NCBI GenBank assembly: GCA_029856155.1
Contig: JAHQWL010000085.1
Location: 1-64,000, forward strand
DNA from: Promethearchaeia archaeon
GTDB lineage: Archaea; Asgardarchaeota; Lokiarchaeia; Sigyniarchaeales; SOKP01
Reading direction: 5' to 3'
Length of the DNA stretch: 64,000 nucleotides
Shown here: positions 45,684-55,445 of the stretch, one piece after another
Layout of the letters: each line of letters begins with the position of its first letter
Numbering within the stretch: position 1 is the first letter of the stretch
The notes under the pieces: model-generated
Seen by the model: the letters and a program-made list of their open reading frames with translations, nothing else
Databases searched by the model: none
Told to the model about the DNA's origin: nothing
Position numbers and translations under genes: made by a program

Positions 45684-46181
45684 TTACATTTCTAATGGTA
45701 CACGCCATTCTACTCCACATTCCCCACAATGATATTTTTTTCCATACATACGTGGATAATCTGATATTAGATGAGTCTTATCGATAGTTTCTCTGATAAG
45801 CGTTTTATTGTGATTCCCACATTTGGGACATTCTCTTCTCGAATCACCTTGGAGAATTTGCCCTTTACCCATTTCAAGAGGAGCTACATCTTTAGAAAAA
45901 ATTGAATCTGAAACGATTATTTCTTTTTTTTGTTCAATGGGTTTAATTTCTTCTTGTTTAATTATATCTTCAACTAATATCACGGGCTCATTTGTTTCTG
46001 TTTCAATTATAGGTTTTAATATTTCTTTAATTGGTTCTTTCGGTACTGTATATGGGCGTTCTCTATTTTCTAATTCAGCAATTCTCTTTTTAAGAATTTC
46101 ATTCTCTTTCATTAATTCTTCAATGAGGTCTTTATATTCTTGGAGAGTAAAGTCTTTTTTTTCTGTCATTTCTTTGCTCAA
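45684..46181 (-). CDS. Coiled-coil protein with C-terminal Zn ribbon
   Basis: N-terminal heptads; CPKC...CGEC. Confidence 0.75.
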   Translation of the reverse strand: MSKEMTEKKDFTLQEYKDLIEELMKENEILKKRIAELENRERPYTVPKEPIKEILKPIIETETNEPVILVEDIIKQEEIKPIEQKKEIIVSDSIFSKDVAPLEMGKGQILQGDSRRECPKCGNHNKTLIRETIDKTHLISDYPRMYGKKYHCGECGVEWRVPLEM

Positions 46182-46344: not shown

Positions 46345-47181
46345 ATGCAACTATTTAATATTAGTGATGAGGGAGAATTAATCAAGATAGATAGGTTATC
46401 TTTTGAGGAAAATGATGTTTATCTTGTTGATGACGAGGAAAAAAACACTATTTATATTTGGGTAGGTTTAAAAGTACTTCAAGCAAAAAAAGACATAATA
46501 GCGGACATTGCTAGAAAGATTGATAAAGAACGCGGTGGATCAGCAAAAATCTTGATAATGAAACAAAAAAGAGAATATGGTTCCTTTTTAGCTATGATGC
46601 ATGATCTTGAAAAAGGGCTAATCCCGGGAAAAACTATTGAAAGGAGACCAGAATTTGTACTAAAAACACCTCCTGAAAGGATAAAATCAGTTAATCTTGA
46701 AGAACCTCCTGAAGAAAGAGAATTAAGCATTGAAACAAAATTAATCGAATGGTTTCAACAACTTAAGAATCATAGAAGCTATGAACCACAAGAAAAGCTA
46801 AAGGAAACCACAGAAACTGTTACATTCGTTAAGTTTGAACAAGCACCCATGGAAGTTAAAGCTACTGAAGAGTTAGAAAGAATAGTTGAAGAGAAAAAAG
46901 AAGAACCTGAAGAACCAGATCTTAAGACACAAATAAAGGAAGCAGCATATTATCTGTCTTTAGATGAATATACTTACGATCAACTATGCTGGATTTTAGC
47001 TGAAAAAATCCAGAAAGTAAACCTAGATATGCCCTCTATAGAAGATATTAGGAGAAAAGCGGAGGAAGTCTTCAATTCAAGCTGTACATACGATGAACTC
47101 TGTTGGTTAAATGCTGAAATGGATATCTTAACTAGAAGAAGCTTTCTTGAACAGAAAAAGAGAAAGATGTTTGATTATTAA
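46345..47181 (+). CDS. Single gelsolin-domain protein with duplicated C-terminal YDxLCW helical domain (Asgard 1DGelX-like)
   Basis: DVYLVD...IYIWVG...Q.RE...F; YDQLCWILAE and YDELCWLNAE. Confidence 0.8.
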   Translation: MQLFNISDEGELIKIDRLSFEENDVYLVDDEEKNTIYIWVGLKVLQAKKDIIADIARKIDKERGGSAKILIMKQKREYGSFLAMMHDLEKGLIPGKTIERRPEFVLKTPPERIKSVNLEEPPEERELSIETKLIEWFQQLKNHRSYEPQEKLKETTETVTFVKFEQAPMEVKATEELERIVEEKKEEPEEPDLKTQIKEAAYYLSLDEYTYDQLCWILAEKIQKVNLDMPSIEDIRRKAEEVFNSSCTYDELCWLNAEMDILTRRSFLEQKKRKMFDY

Positions 47182-47220: not shown

Positions 47221-47526
47221 CTATCCACAACAACTATTATTTTGTGGGTTTTTTGCTACTGCACGAGCATTCCATAAACATCCACAACCTTTTCGTTCTT
47301 GTAATATAATTGCCATTGTTGGACAATTTCTTTTACAAGCAGAACATTCTGTACAGCGTTCTGGTTCATACATCTCATACTTTCCTTCGTTATTAGGATT
47401 TGGTATTCCAAACGGGCATACTTCCCCACAAATTCCACACCCTGTGCACAAATCAGGATTTATCGAGATTTTTGGAATAACAATAGGTATCTTGATTGAA
47501 GCTGCTTTTATCGTTATCTTTATCAC
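47221..47526 (-). CDS. 2x[4Fe-4S] ferredoxin, HgcB-like
   Basis: CTGCGICGEVCP, CTECSACKRNCP, extra GCGC and terminal SCCG. Confidence 0.85.
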   Translation of the reverse strand: MIKITIKAASIKIPIVIPKISINPDLCTGCGICGEVCPFGIPNPNNEGKYEMYEPERCTECSACKRNCPTMAIILQERKGCGCLWNARAVAKNPQNNSCCG

Positions 47527-47574
47527 CTAATTTTTCTCTAATTATATTATTTTTTTTATTTTATTTATTCTATT

Positions 47575-49248
47575 TTATTTTAAAATATTAAAAAAAATGA
47601 ACCCAATAATTTTAGTAACAAGACCAATTATCAATAAAATCATATTAATTTTACTGAAAATGGGATATTCATCTTGAATTTCTCTAGGGCTTGTTGCCAT
47701 AGTATATCCACTAAACGATATTGTCGAAAAGAAAGCTAACCAAAAGTAAAAAATACTACTCAGAAGAATGGATAACAGTGAATAATGAAAAAGCCAAGAA
47801 AATCCACCAAACAATAAAACATTAATAACTCCAAAAATAACTCCTTTATTGACAAATTTGCGCGTAAATTTTGTAATGGGAAAAAATATCGCGATAAGTG
47901 CATTTGCTATAATTATCCAAAGCCAAATTTCGCCCACAATCAATAATTGTGATATCCATACAGTATTAATGAAACTTAGTCCTATAAATAACAAAATTAA
48001 GGCAATACTAGGCCACAGAAATATCTTTCGAAGTAAAAATGTTGTATGTGTAATTTCTGCTCGAAAACGATGCGATATTGTAAATTTTGCTAATTTCATT
48101 TTATCTGGTTTTCGAGCGGGACGTTCTTCTAAGAATTTAGGTAAATATTTAGCCCATACAGGACCATATAAAACATTAAAGGGAAAGTCAGGCGCCTCAG
48201 CTTTTATCAGTGGTGTTGCAATTCCTCCTGCTGAGAGTTGAGGTACAATTATTGTTTTTTTATTAGTAATTTGTGCAATCCCTGTAGCTTTAACAGCTTC
48301 AATTAATTGTTTATTTCCAAAATCGTTTCCACGTGCTGCGCACCATACATTTATACCCCTAGAATCAACACATAATACCCAAGCATCTAATCCTTTTAGA
48401 GCACGCATCACCTTAATATATGTATAAATATAATTAGCTGTTACAATGATAGGCGAAGCTTCATTGGGATTACCAGATTGGTAAATACCTGGTTCAATTG
48501 GTATTTGATCTATTTGTCCCGTGAGTATACAACGATAAATACTCATTTGAGCCCCTAATCCTTTGTATTTTCTATTTCCGGGATGATAATACCCAGGTTT
48601 TATTAAATCCTCCTTAAATATTTTTTTTAGTTCAATGGCTTGAATAGAGCCATGCCTCCATTTCATAACTGCTGAAATTTCAAATCCTATAGGTTCCAAA
48701 TATTTAAAGAACCACTTTACTATAAATGTACTTTGTATTCTGAGTCTCCGTAATTTCTTTTTATAACGCCATCGTTTAAAATTAAACCAAAGCTTCCAGA
48801 AGCCCGACGGTACAAATTCTGCCGCTATAATCATTCGACCATTTGGTTTTAATGCTTTCCATGCATTTCTTAGAAAGATTTGCTGTTCGAAAGGTCTAAG
48901 TTCTGAAAGCATAAATGTGCTAATAATAATATCCATTGTGGCATCCTCAACTGGTAGATCATCTATAGAGCCTATCTGATATAACAACTTAAGATTTGAT
49001 TTAGAGGGGTAATTTTTCATTGCAGCAGTTATCATTCTATGGTTTTTATCTAATGCCAGCACATCATTTCCTTTTAAAGCCATTTCTGCTGCGAGAGTAC
49101 CTGTTCCGCAACCTACTTCTAGGATGTTCTCTTGTGTATTAATTCGCTCTAATATCCAATCCTTTACTTCTATATTTACTCCTTTAGTAAGAGCTGTAAA
49201 TTTTGACTCATATAAATCTGGTTCCAATTCCAACTTTCGCATATACAC
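47575..49248 (-). CDS. Fusion of class I SAM methyltransferase and HgcA-like corrinoid-binding plus transmembrane protein
   Basis: LEVGCGTG, STFMLSEL; EPGIY..GNP...SPIIVTANY, GINVWCAARG, PQL, YGPV; 4-5 C-terminal TMs. Confidence 0.88.
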   Translation of the reverse strand: MYMRKLELEPDLYESKFTALTKGVNIEVKDWILERINTQENILEVGCGTGTLAAEMALKGNDVLALDKNHRMITAAMKNYPSKSNLKLLYQIGSIDDLPVEDATMDIIISTFMLSELRPFEQQIFLRNAWKALKPNGRMIIAAEFVPSGFWKLWFNFKRWRYKKKLRRLRIQSTFIVKWFFKYLEPIGFEISAVMKWRHGSIQAIELKKIFKEDLIKPGYYHPGNRKYKGLGAQMSIYRCILTGQIDQIPIEPGIYQSGNPNEASPIIVTANYIYTYIKVMRALKGLDAWVLCVDSRGINVWCAARGNDFGNKQLIEAVKATGIAQITNKKTIIVPQLSAGGIATPLIKAEAPDFPFNVLYGPVWAKYLPKFLEERPARKPDKMKLAKFTISHRFRAEITHTTFLLRKIFLWPSIALILLFIGLSFINTVWISQLLIVGEIWLWIIIANALIAIFFPITKFTRKFVNKGVIFGVINVLLFGGFSWLFHYSLLSILLSSIFYFWLAFFSTISFSGYTMATSPREIQDEYPIFSKINMILLIIGLVTKIIGFIFFNILK

Positions 49249-49369
49249 TACAGCGATAATATTTACACCTTTTTATTACCCATTTTATTAAATTTAAACA
49301 AAAAAAGAATAAAAATTTTGATTTTATAATTTTTAAACTAGATTCAATACAAAAATCGAGATGTTCGCT

Positions 49370-49465
49370 TTAACAACATTCTTCTTTTGATTGAGCTTCT
49401 TTTTCACTTTTAGTCTCTTCAACACAACATCCTTCAGTACAACATTCTTCATTTTTTTCTATCAT
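49370..49465 (-). CDS. Unannotated 31-aa acidic Cys-pair peptide (MIEKNEECCTEGCCVEETKSEKEAQSKEECC)
   Basis: ATG to TAA with GTGGT SD-like site upstream; lies between the operator/TATA and the hgcA-like gene. Confidence 0.7.
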   Translation of the reverse strand: MIEKNEECCTEGCCVEETKSEKEAQSKEECC

Positions 49466-49505
49466 TTGTTTATACCACTTCATTAATTTATTAATTAGTT
49501 AATTG

Positions 49506-49525
49506 ATAGTTAGGATCCTAACTAT
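49506..49525. promoter_or_regulatory. Perfect 20-bp palindrome ATAGTTAGGATCCTAACTAT (putative MarR operator) abutting a minus-strand BRE/TATA (CGAAAC-TTTTATAT)
   Basis: Directly visible; related copies at 49547-49560 and 50086-50099. Confidence 0.8.
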
Positions 49526-49602
49526 ATAAAAGTTTCGTTTCGTATAATTAAGATCCTAACAAACGTTAAAAACATTCAAAATTCAAAGAGGATTTAGTAA
49601 TA

Positions 49603-50070
49603 TCATAAAGAAATAAGTGAATTCAGGAGTTTTTGGAGTAATTCTCCTAATTTTTTTATCTCTTCCTCATTAATTTCCGGACAACATCCATTTACCATTG
49701 ATTCTAATCGAGGTGTTTTGGTTTTTAAATCTTCTCCCTTTTTAGTAAGTTTAACAAGAAGGCTTCGTCTATCGCTAGGATGTGACTCACGAGAAACCAA
49801 TTCCTTCTTCTCCATAGTGTCTACTACTCCTGTAATTGTAGATCTAGAACAATTACATGTTTCTGCTAATTCTTTAAATTGTTGACCATCAGAACTCCAT
49901 AATTCTCTTAGAATTAGATGTTGAGTTGGTGTTAGTTCTAACATTTGAATATTATTTCGCTGTAATTTTTCATATTTTTTATTTAAGGTATTGATAAGTT
50001 CAAAAACTTGAACAATGTCTTCAGGTTGACAACAAATATTTGAAGATTTTTGAGAATTTTTATCATTCAT
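49603..50070 (-). CDS. MarR-family regulator with multiple Cys (CC, CxC, CC)
   Basis: LTPTQHLIL...ELA...SRSTITGVVD.ME...V.R....DRRSLLVKLT.KG. Confidence 0.92.
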   Translation of the reverse strand: MNDKNSQKSSNICCQPEDIVQVFELINTLNKKYEKLQRNNIQMLELTPTQHLILRELWSSDGQQFKELAETCNCSRSTITGVVDTMEKKELVSRESHPSDRRSLLVKLTKKGEDLKTKTPRLESMVNGCCPEINEEEIKKLGELLQKLLNSLISL

Positions 50071-50085
50071 AATTATCAAATCTTA

Positions 50086-50099
50086 GTTAGGTTCTTAAT
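50086..50099. promoter_or_regulatory. Degenerate operator copy GTTAGGTTCTTAAT upstream of marR (probable autoregulation)
   Basis: 11/14 match to GTTAGGATCCTAAC. Confidence 0.6.
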
Positions 50100-50256
50100 A
50101 ATTTATATCCTTATAATTTTAATAGCTCTTACTATTTTATATTTTTTGTGGTTCTGAATAGGTTTATAAAATCTTTCAATTATCTATGCTAGTTAATTTT
50201 AAATACTTCTCTTTATATCTAATACTAAATTTTAATTTAAAAAATTGGTAATCTTA

Positions 50257-50844
50257 ATGGAAAATAGTGATGAAGTAAGTGAAAAGCAGTTGTGGAAAAG
50301 AATTTGGAGTGAATTTCGAATACCACTTATAGTAGTAATTCTAGCTGGTATTTGTGCTATCATCGGAGCTCTTCTTGTTCTCTTTTGGTTTATAAGGATA
50401 ACACCTCTTGGTTATTATGGTACTGCCCCTATTGGATTATGGAGAATGAATTGGGTCGTTGGGTTTATGATCCTTTTAGCTCTATTCGAGCTTTTATTTA
50501 TTGGTGTTCCAGCGGGATTATTTTTCGGTCTAGGCGGATATTTATGGTGGCGTAATTTGGCTCCTGAAAAAAAGCAATTTTTCAAAGACAGAGAAAAGAA
50601 AAAGACCCATAGAAAGCAAGAATATGGTGGTGGGGGTGGATTTGGATTCTTTATGTTCATATTTTATTGTATTTATCTTGCCTTTGATGGTCATTACAAT
50701 GCTCCTTTTGGTAGTGAACCCTATACTTATTGGATTTATGCATGGTTTTTAACAATCATGTGGCTCTTGATATATGTTGGAATCCCAGCAGCAATAATTT
50801 GCCTTATTTTATACTTTACTAAGTGGCGAAAAATACCTGAATAA
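50257..50844 (+). CDS. Hypothetical four-TM membrane protein
   Basis: Hydrophobic helices with a basic loop and GGGGG. Confidence 0.7.
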   Translation: MENSDEVSEKQLWKRIWSEFRIPLIVVILAGICAIIGALLVLFWFIRITPLGYYGTAPIGLWRMNWVVGFMILLALFELLFIGVPAGLFFGLGGYLWWRNLAPEKKQFFKDREKKKTHRKQEYGGGGGFGFFMFIFYCIYLAFDGHYNAPFGSEPYTYWIYAWFLTIMWLLIYVGIPAAIICLILYFTKWRKIPE

Positions 50845-50927: not shown

Positions 50928-52235
50928 TTAATTCTTAGCCATCGCTGTTATAGTTTTATCTTTAGGTTCTGGTACAAATTGCAGTGCTATAAAAACACCA
51001 ATAAATGCTACTAAGCTTAAGAGCATCCCCACACCTAATGCTTGTAGAGAAATGAATGGATGTAATAATCTTTCTGCTGTTGTAGTATAAGGATTAAGAG
51101 AATCAGAAATTGCACCTACCATAAAACCACCAAAACTTGCCCCTCGAGCTATTGAAAAAATAATTGAATTAGCTGAAGCTCTAATTTCTGTATCATATAA
51201 TTCAGAAGACCATACTCCAAAGATGCCATGCAATGCAAAACCAATAGTAATAACTCCACCAGCTATTATAAGCAATGTATTATTGAAAATTAAGAAACCA
51301 AATATGCCAAATAATACTCCTCCAGTGATACCAATTAAGTTATCTATTAAAAATGCTTTTTTCCTACCTATATAATCGCTCAGTGCCCCAAAAGAAAACA
51401 ACATCACAGCGGCTATTACCATATAAATTAACATGATAAGCAGAGCACTAGTTTCAGGATTTGCCGCACCTGAATAGGTAAATAAATATTCAAAAAATAC
51501 CGGGGCAAAATCAACTAGAGTATGATATGCCGTTTCAGCAAACCAGAAAAGAATTGTTAGTAAAATCGTTAATTTGAGCCATTTCTTACCAAAGACTTCC
51601 CTTATTCTTATTTTTTGCTTAACTTGTTTCTCCTTAGTTATTTTGTCGTATTCTGACCAGACTTCTGATTCAGGTAAAGCAAACCAAAATAGAACAAGGA
51701 AGGGTATTGGAAATAAAGCAGTAAGAAAACAATATTGCCATCCTAAGGGTCCAATCAACATTGTTGTGAGAATAGCGGCAATGTAACCTATTACAAAAGT
51801 AGAATGAACCAATCCTCCTGCAGCTCCTCTTCTTTTTGTTGTAAAATACTCAGAGATTATTGAAAAGGATATTCCCCAACTCACACCTAATCCAGAAAGC
51901 ATACGTAATATGGCAAAAAGGAGAAAACTATTGCGAGGAACAAAAGCTGTAGAAGCTGAAAAAATAGCATCCCAAGCAATTGACAAAATCAAAGCTTTTT
52001 TTCTGCCAAATCTATCACCAATTTCACCAAATAATATTGCTCCTGGTACAGTACAAACAAATTGTAATGAAATAACTAGTCCAATCGCAGTATCTCCTAC
52101 ACTAAAATAATCTTTTAATCTTTGAGCAAGAGTACTTATTAATACAAGTGAGTATCCATCATGCATCCAAGCAATTATTGCGGCTAGCATAACAACCATT
52201 AAAATACCTTTTGAATAAGATTTTTCTTCACTCAT
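50928..52235 (-). CDS. MFS transporter (sugar/aromatic acid type)
   Basis: DGY, GDRFGRK, SE...RRG, LPES, SDYIGRK, ELY...RA. Confidence 0.9.
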   Translation of the reverse strand: MSEEKSYSKGILMVVMLAAIIAWMHDGYSLVLISTLAQRLKDYFSVGDTAIGLVISLQFVCTVPGAILFGEIGDRFGRKKALILSIAWDAIFSASTAFVPRNSFLLFAILRMLSGLGVSWGISFSIISEYFTTKRRGAAGGLVHSTFVIGYIAAILTTMLIGPLGWQYCFLTALFPIPFLVLFWFALPESEVWSEYDKITKEKQVKQKIRIREVFGKKWLKLTILLTILFWFAETAYHTLVDFAPVFFEYLFTYSGAANPETSALLIMLIYMVIAAVMLFSFGALSDYIGRKKAFLIDNLIGITGGVLFGIFGFLIFNNTLLIIAGGVITIGFALHGIFGVWSSELYDTEIRASANSIIFSIARGASFGGFMVGAISDSLNPYTTTAERLLHPFISLQALGVGMLLSLVAFIGVFIALQFVPEPKDKTITAMAKN

Positions 52236-52312
52236 TTTAAGCCTCTCTATAGAAATTTATTATAATAAATAGTTAAATATAGCCTTTTCATCTATTTAAA
52301 TCTATAAAAAAA

Positions 52313-53842
52313 TTAGGTCCCAGCAATTCTCTTTGGATATCTTGTCTGAGCTTTTAAATTTTCTTGAAATAATTTAATCACAAGTTCAAATCGTTTATCT
52401 CTTAAACTACTATCATTCCATAAATTATTCATTTCATATGGATCTTTTTTACGATCATAAATTTCACCGAAATCGTTTAATCCTTCATAAATAGTTAGTT
52501 TATAATCCTCTGTTATTAAATGTCTCAATCTTACATTTAATATTCCTACTTCCTCATCATTTTCTATTAAACAACAATCCCTAGGTTGTAATTTATGATT
52601 TTCAGGTTCTTTTAAAACGGTAGTAATATCATATCCTTGCATATCAGGGGGTTGTTGACTTTCTTTTATCCTTAGAAGATTTAAAATAGTCTTAGGATAA
52701 TCAATAGAACTCATTAAGGAATTAGTTATTCCTGGTTTTGTAAGCCCTGGTACTCTCCATATCATTGGTATATGAAAAACACCCATATAAGTTGATGGAC
52801 CTTTGAAAATCATTCCGTGTTCACCCATCAAATCACCATGATCACTAGTATATATTACTATTGTATTATCAGCATACCCTAGTTTTTCAAGAGATGCTAA
52901 AATCTGGCCTACGCAATCGTCTATTAGGGAAATTGTTCCATAAGTATAAGCGATAAATTGTTTTACTTCTTCTTCTGTAGTTTCTCTTAACATAGCTCCT
53001 GGCATTACATTAATATATGGTGCTAGATATGGGTGATTCCGTAACTTCTCAAGATTGTCAAAATTTTTAGGCAAATCAATATCTTCTGGACTATACATAT
53101 CCTTATATTTACCTGGAGGCCATACTGGTTGATGGGGATCAGGGAAAGAGCAATGGACATAGAAAGGTTTTTTCCCATAATGTCCCTTGGAATGTCTTTC
53201 TAGAAAGGCAATAGTTCTTTCGGTTACATATGAACTAGAATATAATTCTACAGGTAAGTCATGTTCAGTAAAAACAGAAAAGAAATTATCTATATTTTTC
53301 CATCTTTCTCGCATTTTCTCTACCTGGAGAGGTGATCTTTCTTCTAACCAATCCAAATAATGACCACATAAACATGCACCATGACCTAATACTGTTTCAA
53401 CTTCTTGGTATCCATAATAGGGTATAGGAAAGTTTTCACGTACAGGATAATTGCCTTCTTGAGGAAATACCCAATCTTGAAAATGTTCTGTAGATTTATA
53501 GTAGAGTTTGTAAGGTGCCACATTAAATTGATGGTGTAATTTTCCAAATGCTGCAGTATACCATCCTTTCTTTACGAGTGTCTGAGTAATTGTAGGAACA
53601 TCTTTAGACAGAATCATTCCATTGCTTCGAACTCCATGAACGTTTGGATATAATCCCGTCAATAGCGTCGCTCTATTAGGCATACACATAGGATTAGTAC
53701 AGAAGGCATTAGTAAAATGTACCCCTTCACTTGATAATCTATCAATATTTGGTGTCTTCAAAATCGGATTTCCAGAGCAACTCAGATGGTCATATCTTTG
53801 TTGATCAGTAATTATAAATAAAACATTCATTCTTTCACTCAT
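52313..53842 (-). CDS. Cys-type (formylglycine) sulfatase, cytoplasmic
   Basis: IITDQQR, TPNID, CMPNRATLLTG, GKLH, PDPH, SDHG. Confidence 0.92.
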   Translation of the reverse strand: MSERMNVLFIITDQQRYDHLSCSGNPILKTPNIDRLSSEGVHFTNAFCTNPMCMPNRATLLTGLYPNVHGVRSNGMILSKDVPTITQTLVKKGWYTAAFGKLHHQFNVAPYKLYYKSTEHFQDWVFPQEGNYPVRENFPIPYYGYQEVETVLGHGACLCGHYLDWLEERSPLQVEKMRERWKNIDNFFSVFTEHDLPVELYSSSYVTERTIAFLERHSKGHYGKKPFYVHCSFPDPHQPVWPPGKYKDMYSPEDIDLPKNFDNLEKLRNHPYLAPYINVMPGAMLRETTEEEVKQFIAYTYGTISLIDDCVGQILASLEKLGYADNTIVIYTSDHGDLMGEHGMIFKGPSTYMGVFHIPMIWRVPGLTKPGITNSLMSSIDYPKTILNLLRIKESQQPPDMQGYDITTVLKEPENHKLQPRDCCLIENDEEVGILNVRLRHLITEDYKLTIYEGLNDFGEIYDRKKDPYEMNNLWNDSSLRDKRFELVIKLFQENLKAQTRYPKRIAGT

Positions 53843-53918
53843 AATAATCAAAAGATTTCATTTCTGCTTAAAATTCAAATTAATTCTATAATTATTTTAG
53901 GGAATCGTTTCATTCTTG

Positions 53919-55445
53919 TTATGTTCCAGCTATGCGTTTTGGATAATAGGATTGAGCATTAAGATTTTCGTGTAATAATTTATTTACTAATTCAAATCGT
54001 TTATCCTTAAAATTATCATTATACCATAAATTATTTAATTCATGAGGATCATTTTTTCGATCATAAATATCACCAAACTTACTAAGGCTATTATATATAG
54101 TCAATTTATAATTCTCGGTTATTAAATGACGTAATCTTGCTTTAAGAGTGCCTACTTCTTCATCATTTTCAATTAAAATACTATCTCTTATCTTCTCATC
54201 AGGATCTTTTAAAATTGGAGAAATATCATAACCTTGCATTTCAGGAGGATGGTATCTTTCCGGTATGTCTAAAAGGTTTAAAATTGTTTTGGGATAATCA
54301 ATTGAGCTGACTAGTGACTCAGACACGTCTCCAGGACTGGTTAATCCTGGCACTTTCCAAATTAAGGGTAGTTGTAGTACACCATTAAAAGGACAAGGAC
54401 CCTTAAATAAGAGCCCATGATCACCCATTAAATCCCCATGATCACTCATAAAAACAATTATTGTATTATCTGAAAGTTCCGATTTTTCCAATGAAGCTAG
54501 TATCTTTCCTATACTATAATCCACATATCCTATTGCTGCATATGTCAATGCTGTTATCTTGCGGACTTCTTCTTCCGTAGATTCACGTAAGAAAGCTCTT
54601 TTAAAAGGAGGATTTTTCAAATGGTAACCTAAGAATTCATGGTTGTATAAATTAGCAATATCATCAAAATTTGCGGGAATGGTTATGTCTTCTGGTTTAT
54701 ACATAGCTTGATATCTTTCAGGGGGATATAACGGATAATGCGGATCAGGAAATGAGCAATGTAAATAAAAGGGCTTATCTCCATAATTTCCCTTGTTGTA
54801 CCTTTCGAGAAATGCTAGGGTCCTTTCTGTTACCCACGTAGTATTATACAATTCTTCAGGTATCGCATCACAAAAAAGGCTAAATAAATTATCATAATTC
54901 ATTACTCGTTTCTTCATATCTTTTGCAATTTCAGGAGCTCTTTCCTCTAACCATTCTAAATAATGTCCCGCACAAACAGAACCATTTCCCGAAATCACTT
55001 CAACTTCTTCATAGCCATAATAAGGTATTGGAAAACTTTCTCTCACCGGATAAGTTATATCTCTATTAAGAGCCCAATCAGTTAAACTTTCTGCAGATCT
55101 ACTCCTATGTTTAAATGGCCCTAACCAATATTGATGATGTATTTTTCCAAAAGCAGCGGTATGCCATCCTCTTTTCTTAAGAGTTTGAATGATCGTTGGA
55201 ATATCTTTTCTTAAATTAATACCATTACTTCTAACGCCATGAACATTTGGGTATACTCCTGTAACCATAGTTGCTCTATTTGGCATACAGATGGGGTTTG
55301 TACAGAAATAATTCGTAAACCTAACGCCTTCTGCAGCTAATTTATCAAGGTTCGGAGTTCTCACTGTTGGACTACCCGCACAACCCATATGGTCTGCACG
55401 CATTGCATCAGTTATGATAAATAAGACGTTTAATTTTTCATTCAT
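53919..55445 (-). CDS. Cys-type sulfatase, tandem paralog
   Basis: CMPNRATMVTG, GKIH, PDPH, SDHG; same YPKRIAGT terminus. Confidence 0.92.
   Translation of the reverse strand: MNEKLNVLFIITDAMRADHMGCAGSPTVRTPNLDKLAAEGVRFTNYFCTNPICMPNRATMVTGVYPNVHGVRSNGINLRKDIPTIIQTLKKRGWHTAAFGKIHHQYWLGPFKHRSRSAESLTDWALNRDITYPVRESFPIPYYGYEEVEVISGNGSVCAGHYLEWLEERAPEIAKDMKKRVMNYDNLFSLFCDAIPEELYNTTWVTERTLAFLERYNKGNYGDKPFYLHCSFPDPHYPLYPPERYQAMYKPEDITIPANFDDIANLYNHEFLGYHLKNPPFKRAFLRESTEEEVRKITALTYAAIGYVDYSIGKILASLEKSELSDNTIIVFMSDHGDLMGDHGLLFKGPCPFNGVLQLPLIWKVPGLTSPGDVSESLVSSIDYPKTILNLLDIPERYHPPEMQGYDISPILKDPDEKIRDSILIENDEEVGTLKARLRHLITENYKLTIYNSLSKFGDIYDRKNDPHELNNLWYNDNFKDKRFELVNKLLHENLNAQSYYPKRIAGT

Follow-up and report, generated by a model that had tools for sequence, protein, structure and literature searches.

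The physiological role of HgcAB in microbes has been an open question since its discovery. For the canonical proteins, S-adenosylmethionine (SAM) has been shown to be the methyl donor, acting via a Cys-ligated methylcob(III)alamin after low-potential reduction (PMC11588087), and in P. mercurii the hgcAB genes are under an ArsR that responds to arsenic and to S-adenosylhomocysteine (bioRxiv 10.1101/2022.10.17.512643), which is a precedent for the interpretation given here. The cassette of CpaM and HgcAB-like proteins is catalogued but uncharacterised. We analysed a 64,000-nucleotide (nt) stretch (the window) of a contig from a Loki-type Asgard archaeon, whose own genome is 4.1 Mb and 97% complete, and we describe four genes on its minus strand between positions 47221 and 50079. 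They encode a Cys-rich MarR regulator, MarR(CC), a small peptide with Cys pairs (CC peptide), a methyltransferase fused to an HgcA-like corrinoid protein (the fusion), and a ferredoxin. Judged by sequence, the enzyme pair belongs to the CpaM + HgcAB-like cassette in a rearranged form and is not a canonical HgcAB. We propose that the locus is an inducible metal(loid)-response operon in which SAM would methylate a Cys-ligated corrinoid that would in turn methylate arsenic or a related soft metalloid, a reading to which we assign a probability of about one-half.

The methyltransferase–corrinoid fusion and its ferredoxin

A first-pass annotation of this DNA had described four co-oriented genes, and all four open reading frames (ORFs) were recovered on the minus strand, as follows (lengths in amino acids, aa):

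49603-50079, minus strand: marR(CC), ORF with a probable ATG start at 50070 giving 155 aa and a TTG at 50079 as the alternative (Pfam MarR)
49370-49483, minus strand: CC peptide, ORF of 37 aa with a probable start at the second ATG, 49465, giving 31 aa with three CC pairs
47575-49248, minus strand: fusion protein, ORF with a probable ATG start at 49242 giving 555 aa with methyltransferase, corrinoid and membrane domains
48604..49242, minus strand: N-terminal class I SAM methyltransferase domain of the fusion, CpaM-like, residues 1-213 (NCBIfam CpaM, fold)
48088..48546, minus strand: HgcA-like corrinoid-binding domain of the fusion, residues ~233-385 (Pfam CdhD, NCBIfam)
47581..48078, minus strand: C-terminal membrane domain of the fusion with five transmembrane (TM) helices, residues 389-554 (AlphaFold2, hydropathy)
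47221..47526, minus strand: HgcB-like 2x[4Fe-4S] ferredoxin, 101 aa, start codon uncertain (GTG) (Pfam Fer4, NCBIfam HgcB)

Pfam matched Methyltransf_25 at residues 42-137 and CdhD at residues 235-340 (8.7e-13) of the fusion, whose cap helix reads NVWCAARG with the Cys at residue 301 (codon at 48340-48342). The scores against three NCBIfam models were all below cut-off: 132 bits for CpaM (NF043040; cut-off 180), with residues 1-208 aligned to positions 3-215 of the 216 in the model, 172.3 bits for HgcAB-like (NF043039; cut-off 285), for which true members score 332-419 bits, and 167 bits for HgcA (NF040863; cut-off 275), for which two canonical representatives score 367 and 419.5 bits. The GxGxG motif and the acidic Asp65 of the SAM site were invariant among 66 fusions, and the SAM motifs together with the N-V-W-C-A-A-x-G cap helix were invariant among 49-66 fusions. 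Relative to the canonical cap helix, N(V/I)WCA(A/G)GK, the GK was replaced by RG in the fusions and by GGG or GGK-HF in one sub-clade, with NVWCAA and its Cys unchanged throughout. We also considered that the methyltransferase domain might be ArsM and dropped this idea because the domain has no As-binding Cys, its only Cys being in the SAM motif, and because ArsM models matched the Rossmann core alone.

The AlphaFold2 model of the full-length fusion had a mean predicted local distance difference test (pLDDT) score of 91.1 and a predicted template modelling (pTM) score of 0.86. It placed five TM helices at residues 389-423, 427-457, 463-486, 489-513, and 519-554, in agreement with hydropathy. 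In a search of a PDB library by fold, the best match to the corrinoid and membrane part was the published computational HgcAB model 9a0b_A (E 4.8e-14), and the rest of the protein matched class I methyltransferases; a sequence search of the PDB found no experimental HgcA structure, the best match being the large subunit of the corrinoid iron–sulfur protein (1.6e-8). When the methyltransferase and corrinoid domains were co-folded, the ipSAE score was 0.38, compared with 0.00 for the best control, which gives weak support to their contact: among 80 solved complexes, 58 reached the mark for this score, as did 2 of 110 mismatched pairs, but the solved complexes that did so with 0.60 or less numbered only 7 of the 80, and both of the passing mismatches fell in that range. 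The co-folding runs shared at least 59% of contacts, with a partner pLDDT of at least 76.

The fusion itself has no CX2CX2CX3C motif, the ferredoxin being encoded by a separate gene 48 nt downstream. The ferredoxin carries two CX2CX2CX3C motifs, a GCGC motif and a terminal CC, and scored 53.9 bits against the HgcB model (NF040864), below the cut-off of 99. Among the ferredoxins of the family, GCGC was found in 47 of 47 (two of them reading GCRC) and the terminal CC in 35 of 47. The gene immediately followed the fusion in 28 of 29 close loci and all 20 distant loci.

We next consider the phylogenetic position of the corrinoid domain, using a tree of 100 such domains that was rooted on a CdhE outgroup and built with a quick IQ-TREE search. 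The canonical HgcA group in this tree was chosen by the WCAAGK motif, and the two members that were checked passed the HgcA model. All 38 WCAAGK-type sequences formed one clade (SH-aLRT 100), which excluded 27 of the 28 methyltransferase fusions, including all of those from Asgard loci. The remaining fusion, P0252, an unplaced metagenomic protein of 524 aa with the cap helix NVWCAASEGTFS, was sister to the canonical clade (SH-aLRT 85) on a long branch. The other fusions and the HgcAB-like proteins formed a basal polytomy, and a derivation of the fusions from the HgcAB-like clade was not resolved by the tree. In a published analysis, Asgard sequences were placed in a 'fused HgcAB' clade after the first 327 alignment columns had been trimmed (Lin et al., PMC10083202). 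The first-pass annotation had named the corrinoid part of its candidate HgcAB-like system HgcA, a name to be given up if the domain branched outside that family; since it does lie outside the canonical clade, and both the HgcA and the HgcB model cut-offs were failed, we do not retain this identity.

The cassette of CpaM and HgcAB-like proteins provides the closer comparison. A reference set of 80 HgcAB-like loci spanned many phyla of bacteria and archaea; cpaM was directly upstream on the same strand in 76, two more had it at a distance of 480-670 nt, and the last two had no upstream flank. The cassette and the locus studied here have three modules in common, namely a class I SAM methyltransferase, a corrinoid protein with a Cys cap and a membrane domain, and a ferredoxin with two clusters. 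CpaM is matched along the entire methyltransferase domain, and the CpaM partner here is the N-terminal domain of the fusion; the cap helix in both cases is without the Lys of canonical HgcA. They differ in where the proteins are joined, since here the methyltransferase is attached to the corrinoid protein, whereas the ferredoxin is separate and not fused at the C-terminus. In addition, the fusion falls below both family cut-offs and is found in ars-operon or MarR(CC) contexts, which are rare for the cassette elsewhere. With the methyltransferase fused on and the ferredoxin split off, the locus can be described as a domain-rearranged CpaM + HgcAB-like cassette. The parts listed by the first-pass annotation (a sensor, a Cys-rich peptide, a SAM methyl-loading domain, a Cys-on corrinoid carrier, and a ferredoxin) are borne out, whereas its statement that it knew of no such described system has to be revised for the enzyme core, which NCBIfam already catalogues in another arrangement.

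A triple-fusion protein, P0263 (591 aa), passed both the CpaM and the HgcAB-like cut-offs. It belongs to a third class of paralogues, of ~590-650 aa, that have CpaM, HgcA-like, and ferredoxin parts in one chain (P0263; G204:C14:26368-27870, G211:C14:103614-105218, and G263:C175:2984-4459). Several of the genomic copies contain in-frame TGA codons and may therefore be selenoproteins.

These comparisons also bear on whether the locus could encode a true mercury methylase, in which MarR would sense Hg(II), the peptide and the ferredoxin tail would deliver Hg(II), and the methyl-corrinoid would convert it to methylmercury. Vicinal Cys pairs bind Hg(II) too, as in MerA, MerT, and HgcB, and can be counted in favour of this view. 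As in canonical HgcA and HgcB, there is a corrinoid domain with a cap-helix Cys, a membrane domain of five TM helices, and an adjacent partner ferredoxin with a Cys-rich, terminal-CC tail, and the methyl group probably comes from SAM, as it does in the canonical pair. Conversely, the pair scored below both the HgcA and the HgcB cut-offs, has WCAARG in place of WCAAGK, lies outside the canonical clade, and carries an extra N-terminal methyltransferase; its ferredoxin tail has the two Cys of GCGC, in contrast to the single conserved Cys73 of canonical HgcB (PMC11588087). According to a passage of PMC10083202 that cites the tests, a fused-HgcAB protein of P. furiosus failed to methylate Hg. The neighbours of the relatives described below are ars genes, and no mer genes were seen, although no search aimed at mer was made. 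Taken together, we consider a mercury methylase very unlikely; judging from gene context alone, arsenic or another soft metalloid would most likely be the substrate.

Distribution and arsenic-gene context of the pair

The full-length fusion had more than 1000 database relatives, and among the best 120 every one with a source name was from Asgard archaea. In a sample of 301 genomes of the phylum, the fusion was detected in 180 (E <=1e-10), and in 64 of the 68 genomes of the window's own family. We classified the region upstream of the fusion in 30 loci from this family. The acr3 gene was directly upstream in 13 of the 30 (274.7 bits, E 1e-81), marR and the CC peptide in 10, and a divergent ArsR with an N-terminal CxC in 5, the context being uninformative in the other 2. 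One of the acr3-type loci also contained arsM (347 bits, cut-off 263). The wide loci had the order arsR / DUF166-acr3-(arsM)-fusion-hgcB-small CxC protein, followed by an arsC of the low-molecular-weight phosphatase type. Among 20 distant Asgard fusions, 5 had arsR immediately upstream. The orthologous pair thus holds a slot inside ars operons, a feature that it shares with ArsM; it differs from ArsM in that its methyltransferase domain is without the As-binding Cys and the chemistry would go through the corrinoid. This context, in which acr3, arsR, arsM, and arsC surround the orthologous pair, and the presence of MarR paralogues beside arsM (see below) agree with the suggestion of the first-pass annotation that the locus could serve the inducible methylation or detoxification of a thiophilic metal(loid), and they point to arsenic.

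With regard to the ars operons of the relatives, the DUF166 gene stood first, ahead of acr3, in L157, L159, L161, and L164, and its product showed a weak match to the DfsP (seleno)protein model. In L163, the DUF166 gene directly preceded the fusion without acr3.

The window's own genome has an ars locus on another contig (L038, C26:60708-64670), consisting of arsR / acr3 and genes for a 98-aa CxC protein and a 122-aa protein. This operon is arranged as in relatives except that it does not contain the fusion and hgcB, which elsewhere stand between acr3 and the CxC protein. The simplest history would be that, in part of one genus, the pair left the ars operon and joined the MarR module. The gene order across Asgard archaea, which the first-pass annotation had offered as a check, divides into two parts: the fusion-hgcB order is broadly conserved, whereas marR and the peptide join the pair only in part of one genus. 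ArsM was not found in this 97%-complete genome. Across the family, ArsM was present in 23 of 68 genomes and the fusion in 64 of 68, often together, and the idea that the two are mutually exclusive substitutes was dropped because many genomes have both.

The MarR(CC) regulator, its operators, and the CC peptide

The marR product matched the Pfam MarR family (PF01047) with 68.1 bits (cut-off 24.6, E 6e-19) and contains six Cys residues, with an N-terminal CC, a CxC before the recognition-helix region, and NGCCP near the C-terminus. Among 117 members of the subfamily, the CC was conserved in 100%, the CxC in 96%, and the N-terminal Cys in 78%. The subfamily comprises ~126 proteins, every source of which is Asgard; in the 301-genome sample it was confined to the window's own family, where 26 of 68 genomes had it.

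We then classified 30 MarR(CC) loci, 15 with close (>=66% identity) and 15 with distant (43-57% identity) regulators. Next to the close regulators stood the CC peptide, followed optionally by a flavin mononucleotide (FMN) reductase and/or the fusion and hgcB; the fusion was present in 11 of these 15 loci, and the other four had the peptide with a reductase, with an HgcB-like gene, or with nothing recognised. Beside the distant regulators, arsM was directly adjacent in 10 of 15 loci. Three distant loci were analysed individually: two had a bona fide arsM (335-339 bits, cut-off 263) behind a TTAGG-N2-CCTAA operator, and the third had the CC peptide alone behind such an operator. Since arsM follows the operator in some lineages, including sister genomes, and the fusion pair follows it here, the sensor, operator, and peptide appear to constitute a portable module. 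Judging from these arrangements, the MarR(CC)/operator module would control the methyltransferase::HgcA-like pair here and arsM in those other lineages. The hgcAB genes of P. mercurii ND132 (Gionfriddo et al.) are comparable in that an HgcAB-type pair is under a Cys-rich metalloregulator and tied to arsenic genes; the regulator here is of the MarR family, not ArsR/SmtB, and the operator is a different one.

At another locus, L189 (G065:C199:1666-3580), a marR(CC) copy with three in-frame stops (1 TAG and 2 TAA) precedes a CC peptide. The gene immediately after the peptide encodes an HgcB-like ferredoxin, and no fusion gene separates the two.

The candidate regulatory elements of the locus, and the gene divergent from marR, are as follows:

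49507-49524, no strand assigned: operator O1, perfect palindrome of 18 nt, TAGTTAGGATCCTAACTA, lying between the TATA box and the point where transcription is expected to start
49523-49531, minus strand: TATA box TTTTATATA of the putative peptide/operon promoter, recognised by sequence
49544-49563, no strand assigned: operator O2, degenerate copy (minus-strand reading TTTGTTAGGATCTTAATTAT) located upstream of the TATA box that serves the putative peptide promoter
50084-50105, no strand assigned: operator O3, degenerate palindrome before marR with the core TTAAGAACCTAA, overlapping the TATA-like ATATAAAT (50101-50108)
50245..50844, plus strand: 199-aa membrane protein divergent from marR, ORF without a Pfam family

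The repeated palindrome that had been noted before the peptide unit and before marR was confirmed as three copies of TTAGG-N2-CCTAA, all located by archaeal TATA boxes. O1 abuts the downstream edge of the TTTTATATA box, which is ~120 nt downstream of marR. O3 lies in the intergenic region shared by marR and the divergent membrane-protein gene, where its position over the TATA-like element implies autoregulation, and it was kept upstream of marR in seven congeners and in locus L174. A scan for the operator with three mismatches in the window alone was not significant (4 matches vs 2.5 expected). In the 4.1-Mb genome, the exact 12-mer core of O1 occurs once, and there are 11 one-mismatch sites, two of which are 38 bp apart at this locus. 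The block of ~75 nt formed by O2, the TATA box, and O1 was conserved in ten congeners, in which the flanks diverge and the TATA box is kept as TTTATATA or TTTAAATA. In the congeners, the operator arms TTAGG..CCTAA were conserved and the central 2 nt were variable. We infer that the fusion is co-transcribed with the peptide.

The CC peptide is acidic, with 31 aa when translated from the start at 49465, which aligns with the starts of its orthologues and is preceded by the sequence GAAGTGGT, resembling a ribosome-binding site. It was present in 14 of the 15 close MarR(CC) loci and in the distant locus L174. The orthologues have 25-38 aa, with invariant N-terminal and C-terminal CC pairs, and several have a GGAGG like that of a ribosome-binding site. 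No Pfam or NCBIfam family matched the peptide, and the small ORFs called beside the distant marR genes in L171 and L172 were not CC peptides. We considered that the peptide might be an obligate partner or substrate of the enzyme and dropped this because the peptide occurs without the fusion in L174, L182, L186, and L188 and most fusions occur without the peptide. In acr3-type operons, proteins of 129-132 aa with an N-terminal CC...CC and no known family are encoded just 3' of hgcB (L159:9149-9538 and L162:9663-10061), and these may be counterparts of the CC peptide.

Of the 15 close-MarR loci, 11 had the divergent 199-aa membrane protein in the same place, as did the wide loci L168-L170. In addition to having no Pfam family, this protein found only hypothetical archaeal clusters in an Atlas search. 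It may belong to the MarR regulon. Directly downstream of the operon is a gene for a gelsolin-repeat protein (46345-47181, plus strand; Pfam 7e-06), a eukaryote-like Asgard gene, which lies head-to-head with a gene for a coiled-coil/zinc-ribbon protein (45684-46181, minus strand). On the other side, the region 50928-55445 (minus strand) encodes a major facilitator superfamily (MFS) transporter followed by two tandem sulfatases (Pfam 7e-46 and 4e-48), a set of genes suggesting that sulfated organics are taken up and desulfated.

Possible mechanism and biological meaning

In the mechanism that we propose, MarR dimers on O1, O2, and O3 would block transcription initiation. The CC, the CxC, and the N-terminal Cys would bind a thiophilic ligand, for which As(III) or a methylarsenical is the most probable candidate and Sb(III) a possible one, upon which MarR would leave the DNA. 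The ferredoxin would reduce the corrinoid to Co(I), and the fused CpaM-type domain would move the methyl group of SAM to Co(I), generating a Cys-ligated CH3-Co(III). The acceptor of the methyl group would be a metalloid bound at the GCGC/CC tail of the ferredoxin; the CC peptide would serve as a thiol buffer or chaperone, and the methylated product would exit the cell. In a more far-reaching version, which we offer tentatively, the pair would be a corrinoid-dependent, SAM-charged arsenite/antimonite methyltransferase providing a second, ArsM-independent anaerobic route, with MarR as an As(III) sensor of a kind not known before and the peptide as a mini-metallothionein; metalloid methylation would then be ancestral to the HgcAB/HgcAB-like superfamily and mercury methylation a side reaction.

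Several observations weigh against an arsenic-directed methylation operon. The immediate flanks of the window locus contain no ars gene, and no operator copy stands directly before the fusion gene. ArsM and the fusion co-occur in many genomes and so are not simple substitutes, and outside Asgard archaea the cassettes seldom have ars genes close by (of the 80 reference loci, 2 have acr3 and 3 have arsR). P. mercurii, with its canonical HgcAB, yielded no detectable mono- or dimethylarsenicals, and the loss of hgcAB did not significantly lower its arsenic resistance. Lastly, the closest solved relatives of MarR(CC) are MarR/OhrR proteins (OhrR, 3.9e-12); OhrR is a thiol-peroxide sensor, and its resolving Cys, Cys127, aligns with the C-terminal Cys of MarR(CC).

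The relationship to OhrR raises the alternative that the locus is a thiol/redox stress regulon, in which an OhrR-like 2-Cys sensor would respond to an oxidant or electrophile, the peptide would supply sacrificial thiols, the enzyme would act on an organic or sulfur compound, and the ars neighbours would reflect a shared thiol stress. One distant MarR(CC) operon also includes AhpC/TSA, DsbD, and a nitroreductase-like gene, several close loci have the inserted FMN reductase, and most CpaM + HgcAB-like cassettes have no ars context, all of which fit such a regulon. MarR(CC) and the OhrR/2-Cys MarR proteins also have in common the MarR fold and a palindromic operator. In contrast, MarR(CC) scored 54.2 bits against the OhrR model (NF052638), below the cut-off of 200, and has six Cys residues including vicinal CC pairs and a CxC, sites that would resemble S3 metalloid sites more than those of one- or two-Cys peroxide sensors. 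Its regulon likewise differs, comprising arsM, the CC peptide, and HgcAB-like genes: arsM is the specific neighbour of 10 of the 15 distant MarR(CC), and the orthologous pair is placed between acr3 and arsC. On this evidence, we regard a redox regulon as unlikely.

The same ars context would also be expected if the pair carried out another reaction of organoarsenicals. In that case, the Co(I) corrinoid would demethylate, or exchange methyl groups of, trivalent monomethylarsenicals (MAs(III)) or dimethylarsenicals (DMAs), or would process thioarsenicals, and the SAM domain would reactivate Co(II) as in methionine synthase. Corrinoid enzymes require reductive SAM-dependent reactivation (PMC11588087), and P. 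mercurii formed presumed thioarsenicals and no methylarsenicals. However, the methyltransferase is a constant, stoichiometric partner, either fused or upstream in 76 of 80 loci, which fits a catalytic donor better than occasional repair, and we give this alternative little credence. The inducible operon in which a SAM-charged corrinoid would methylate arsenic or a related metalloid is the interpretation that we favour.

In the literature searched, we found no paper describing the methyltransferase::HgcA fusion, its residence in ars operons, or the MarR(CC)/operator/CC-peptide module. What is new here is the Asgard-only MarR(CC) subfamily, its operator/peptide module, and the putative relocation of the pair from the ars operon as read from the gene orders; for the enzyme core, the novelty lies in how the parts of a catalogued, uncharacterised cassette are arranged. 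The gene fusion would fix the methyl source, which agrees with the demonstration in 2024 that HgcAB takes its methyl group from SAM. Relatives have the pair inside arsenic operons, and here it is under a regulator whose paralogues appear to control arsenite methyltransferase genes. The MarR(CC)/operator pair is also a candidate metalloid sensor of compact form. If the proposed reaction is true, the pair would represent a new enzyme class for anaerobic arsenic cycling in sediments, and it would provide a first physiological role for the very widespread CpaM + HgcAB-like cassette.

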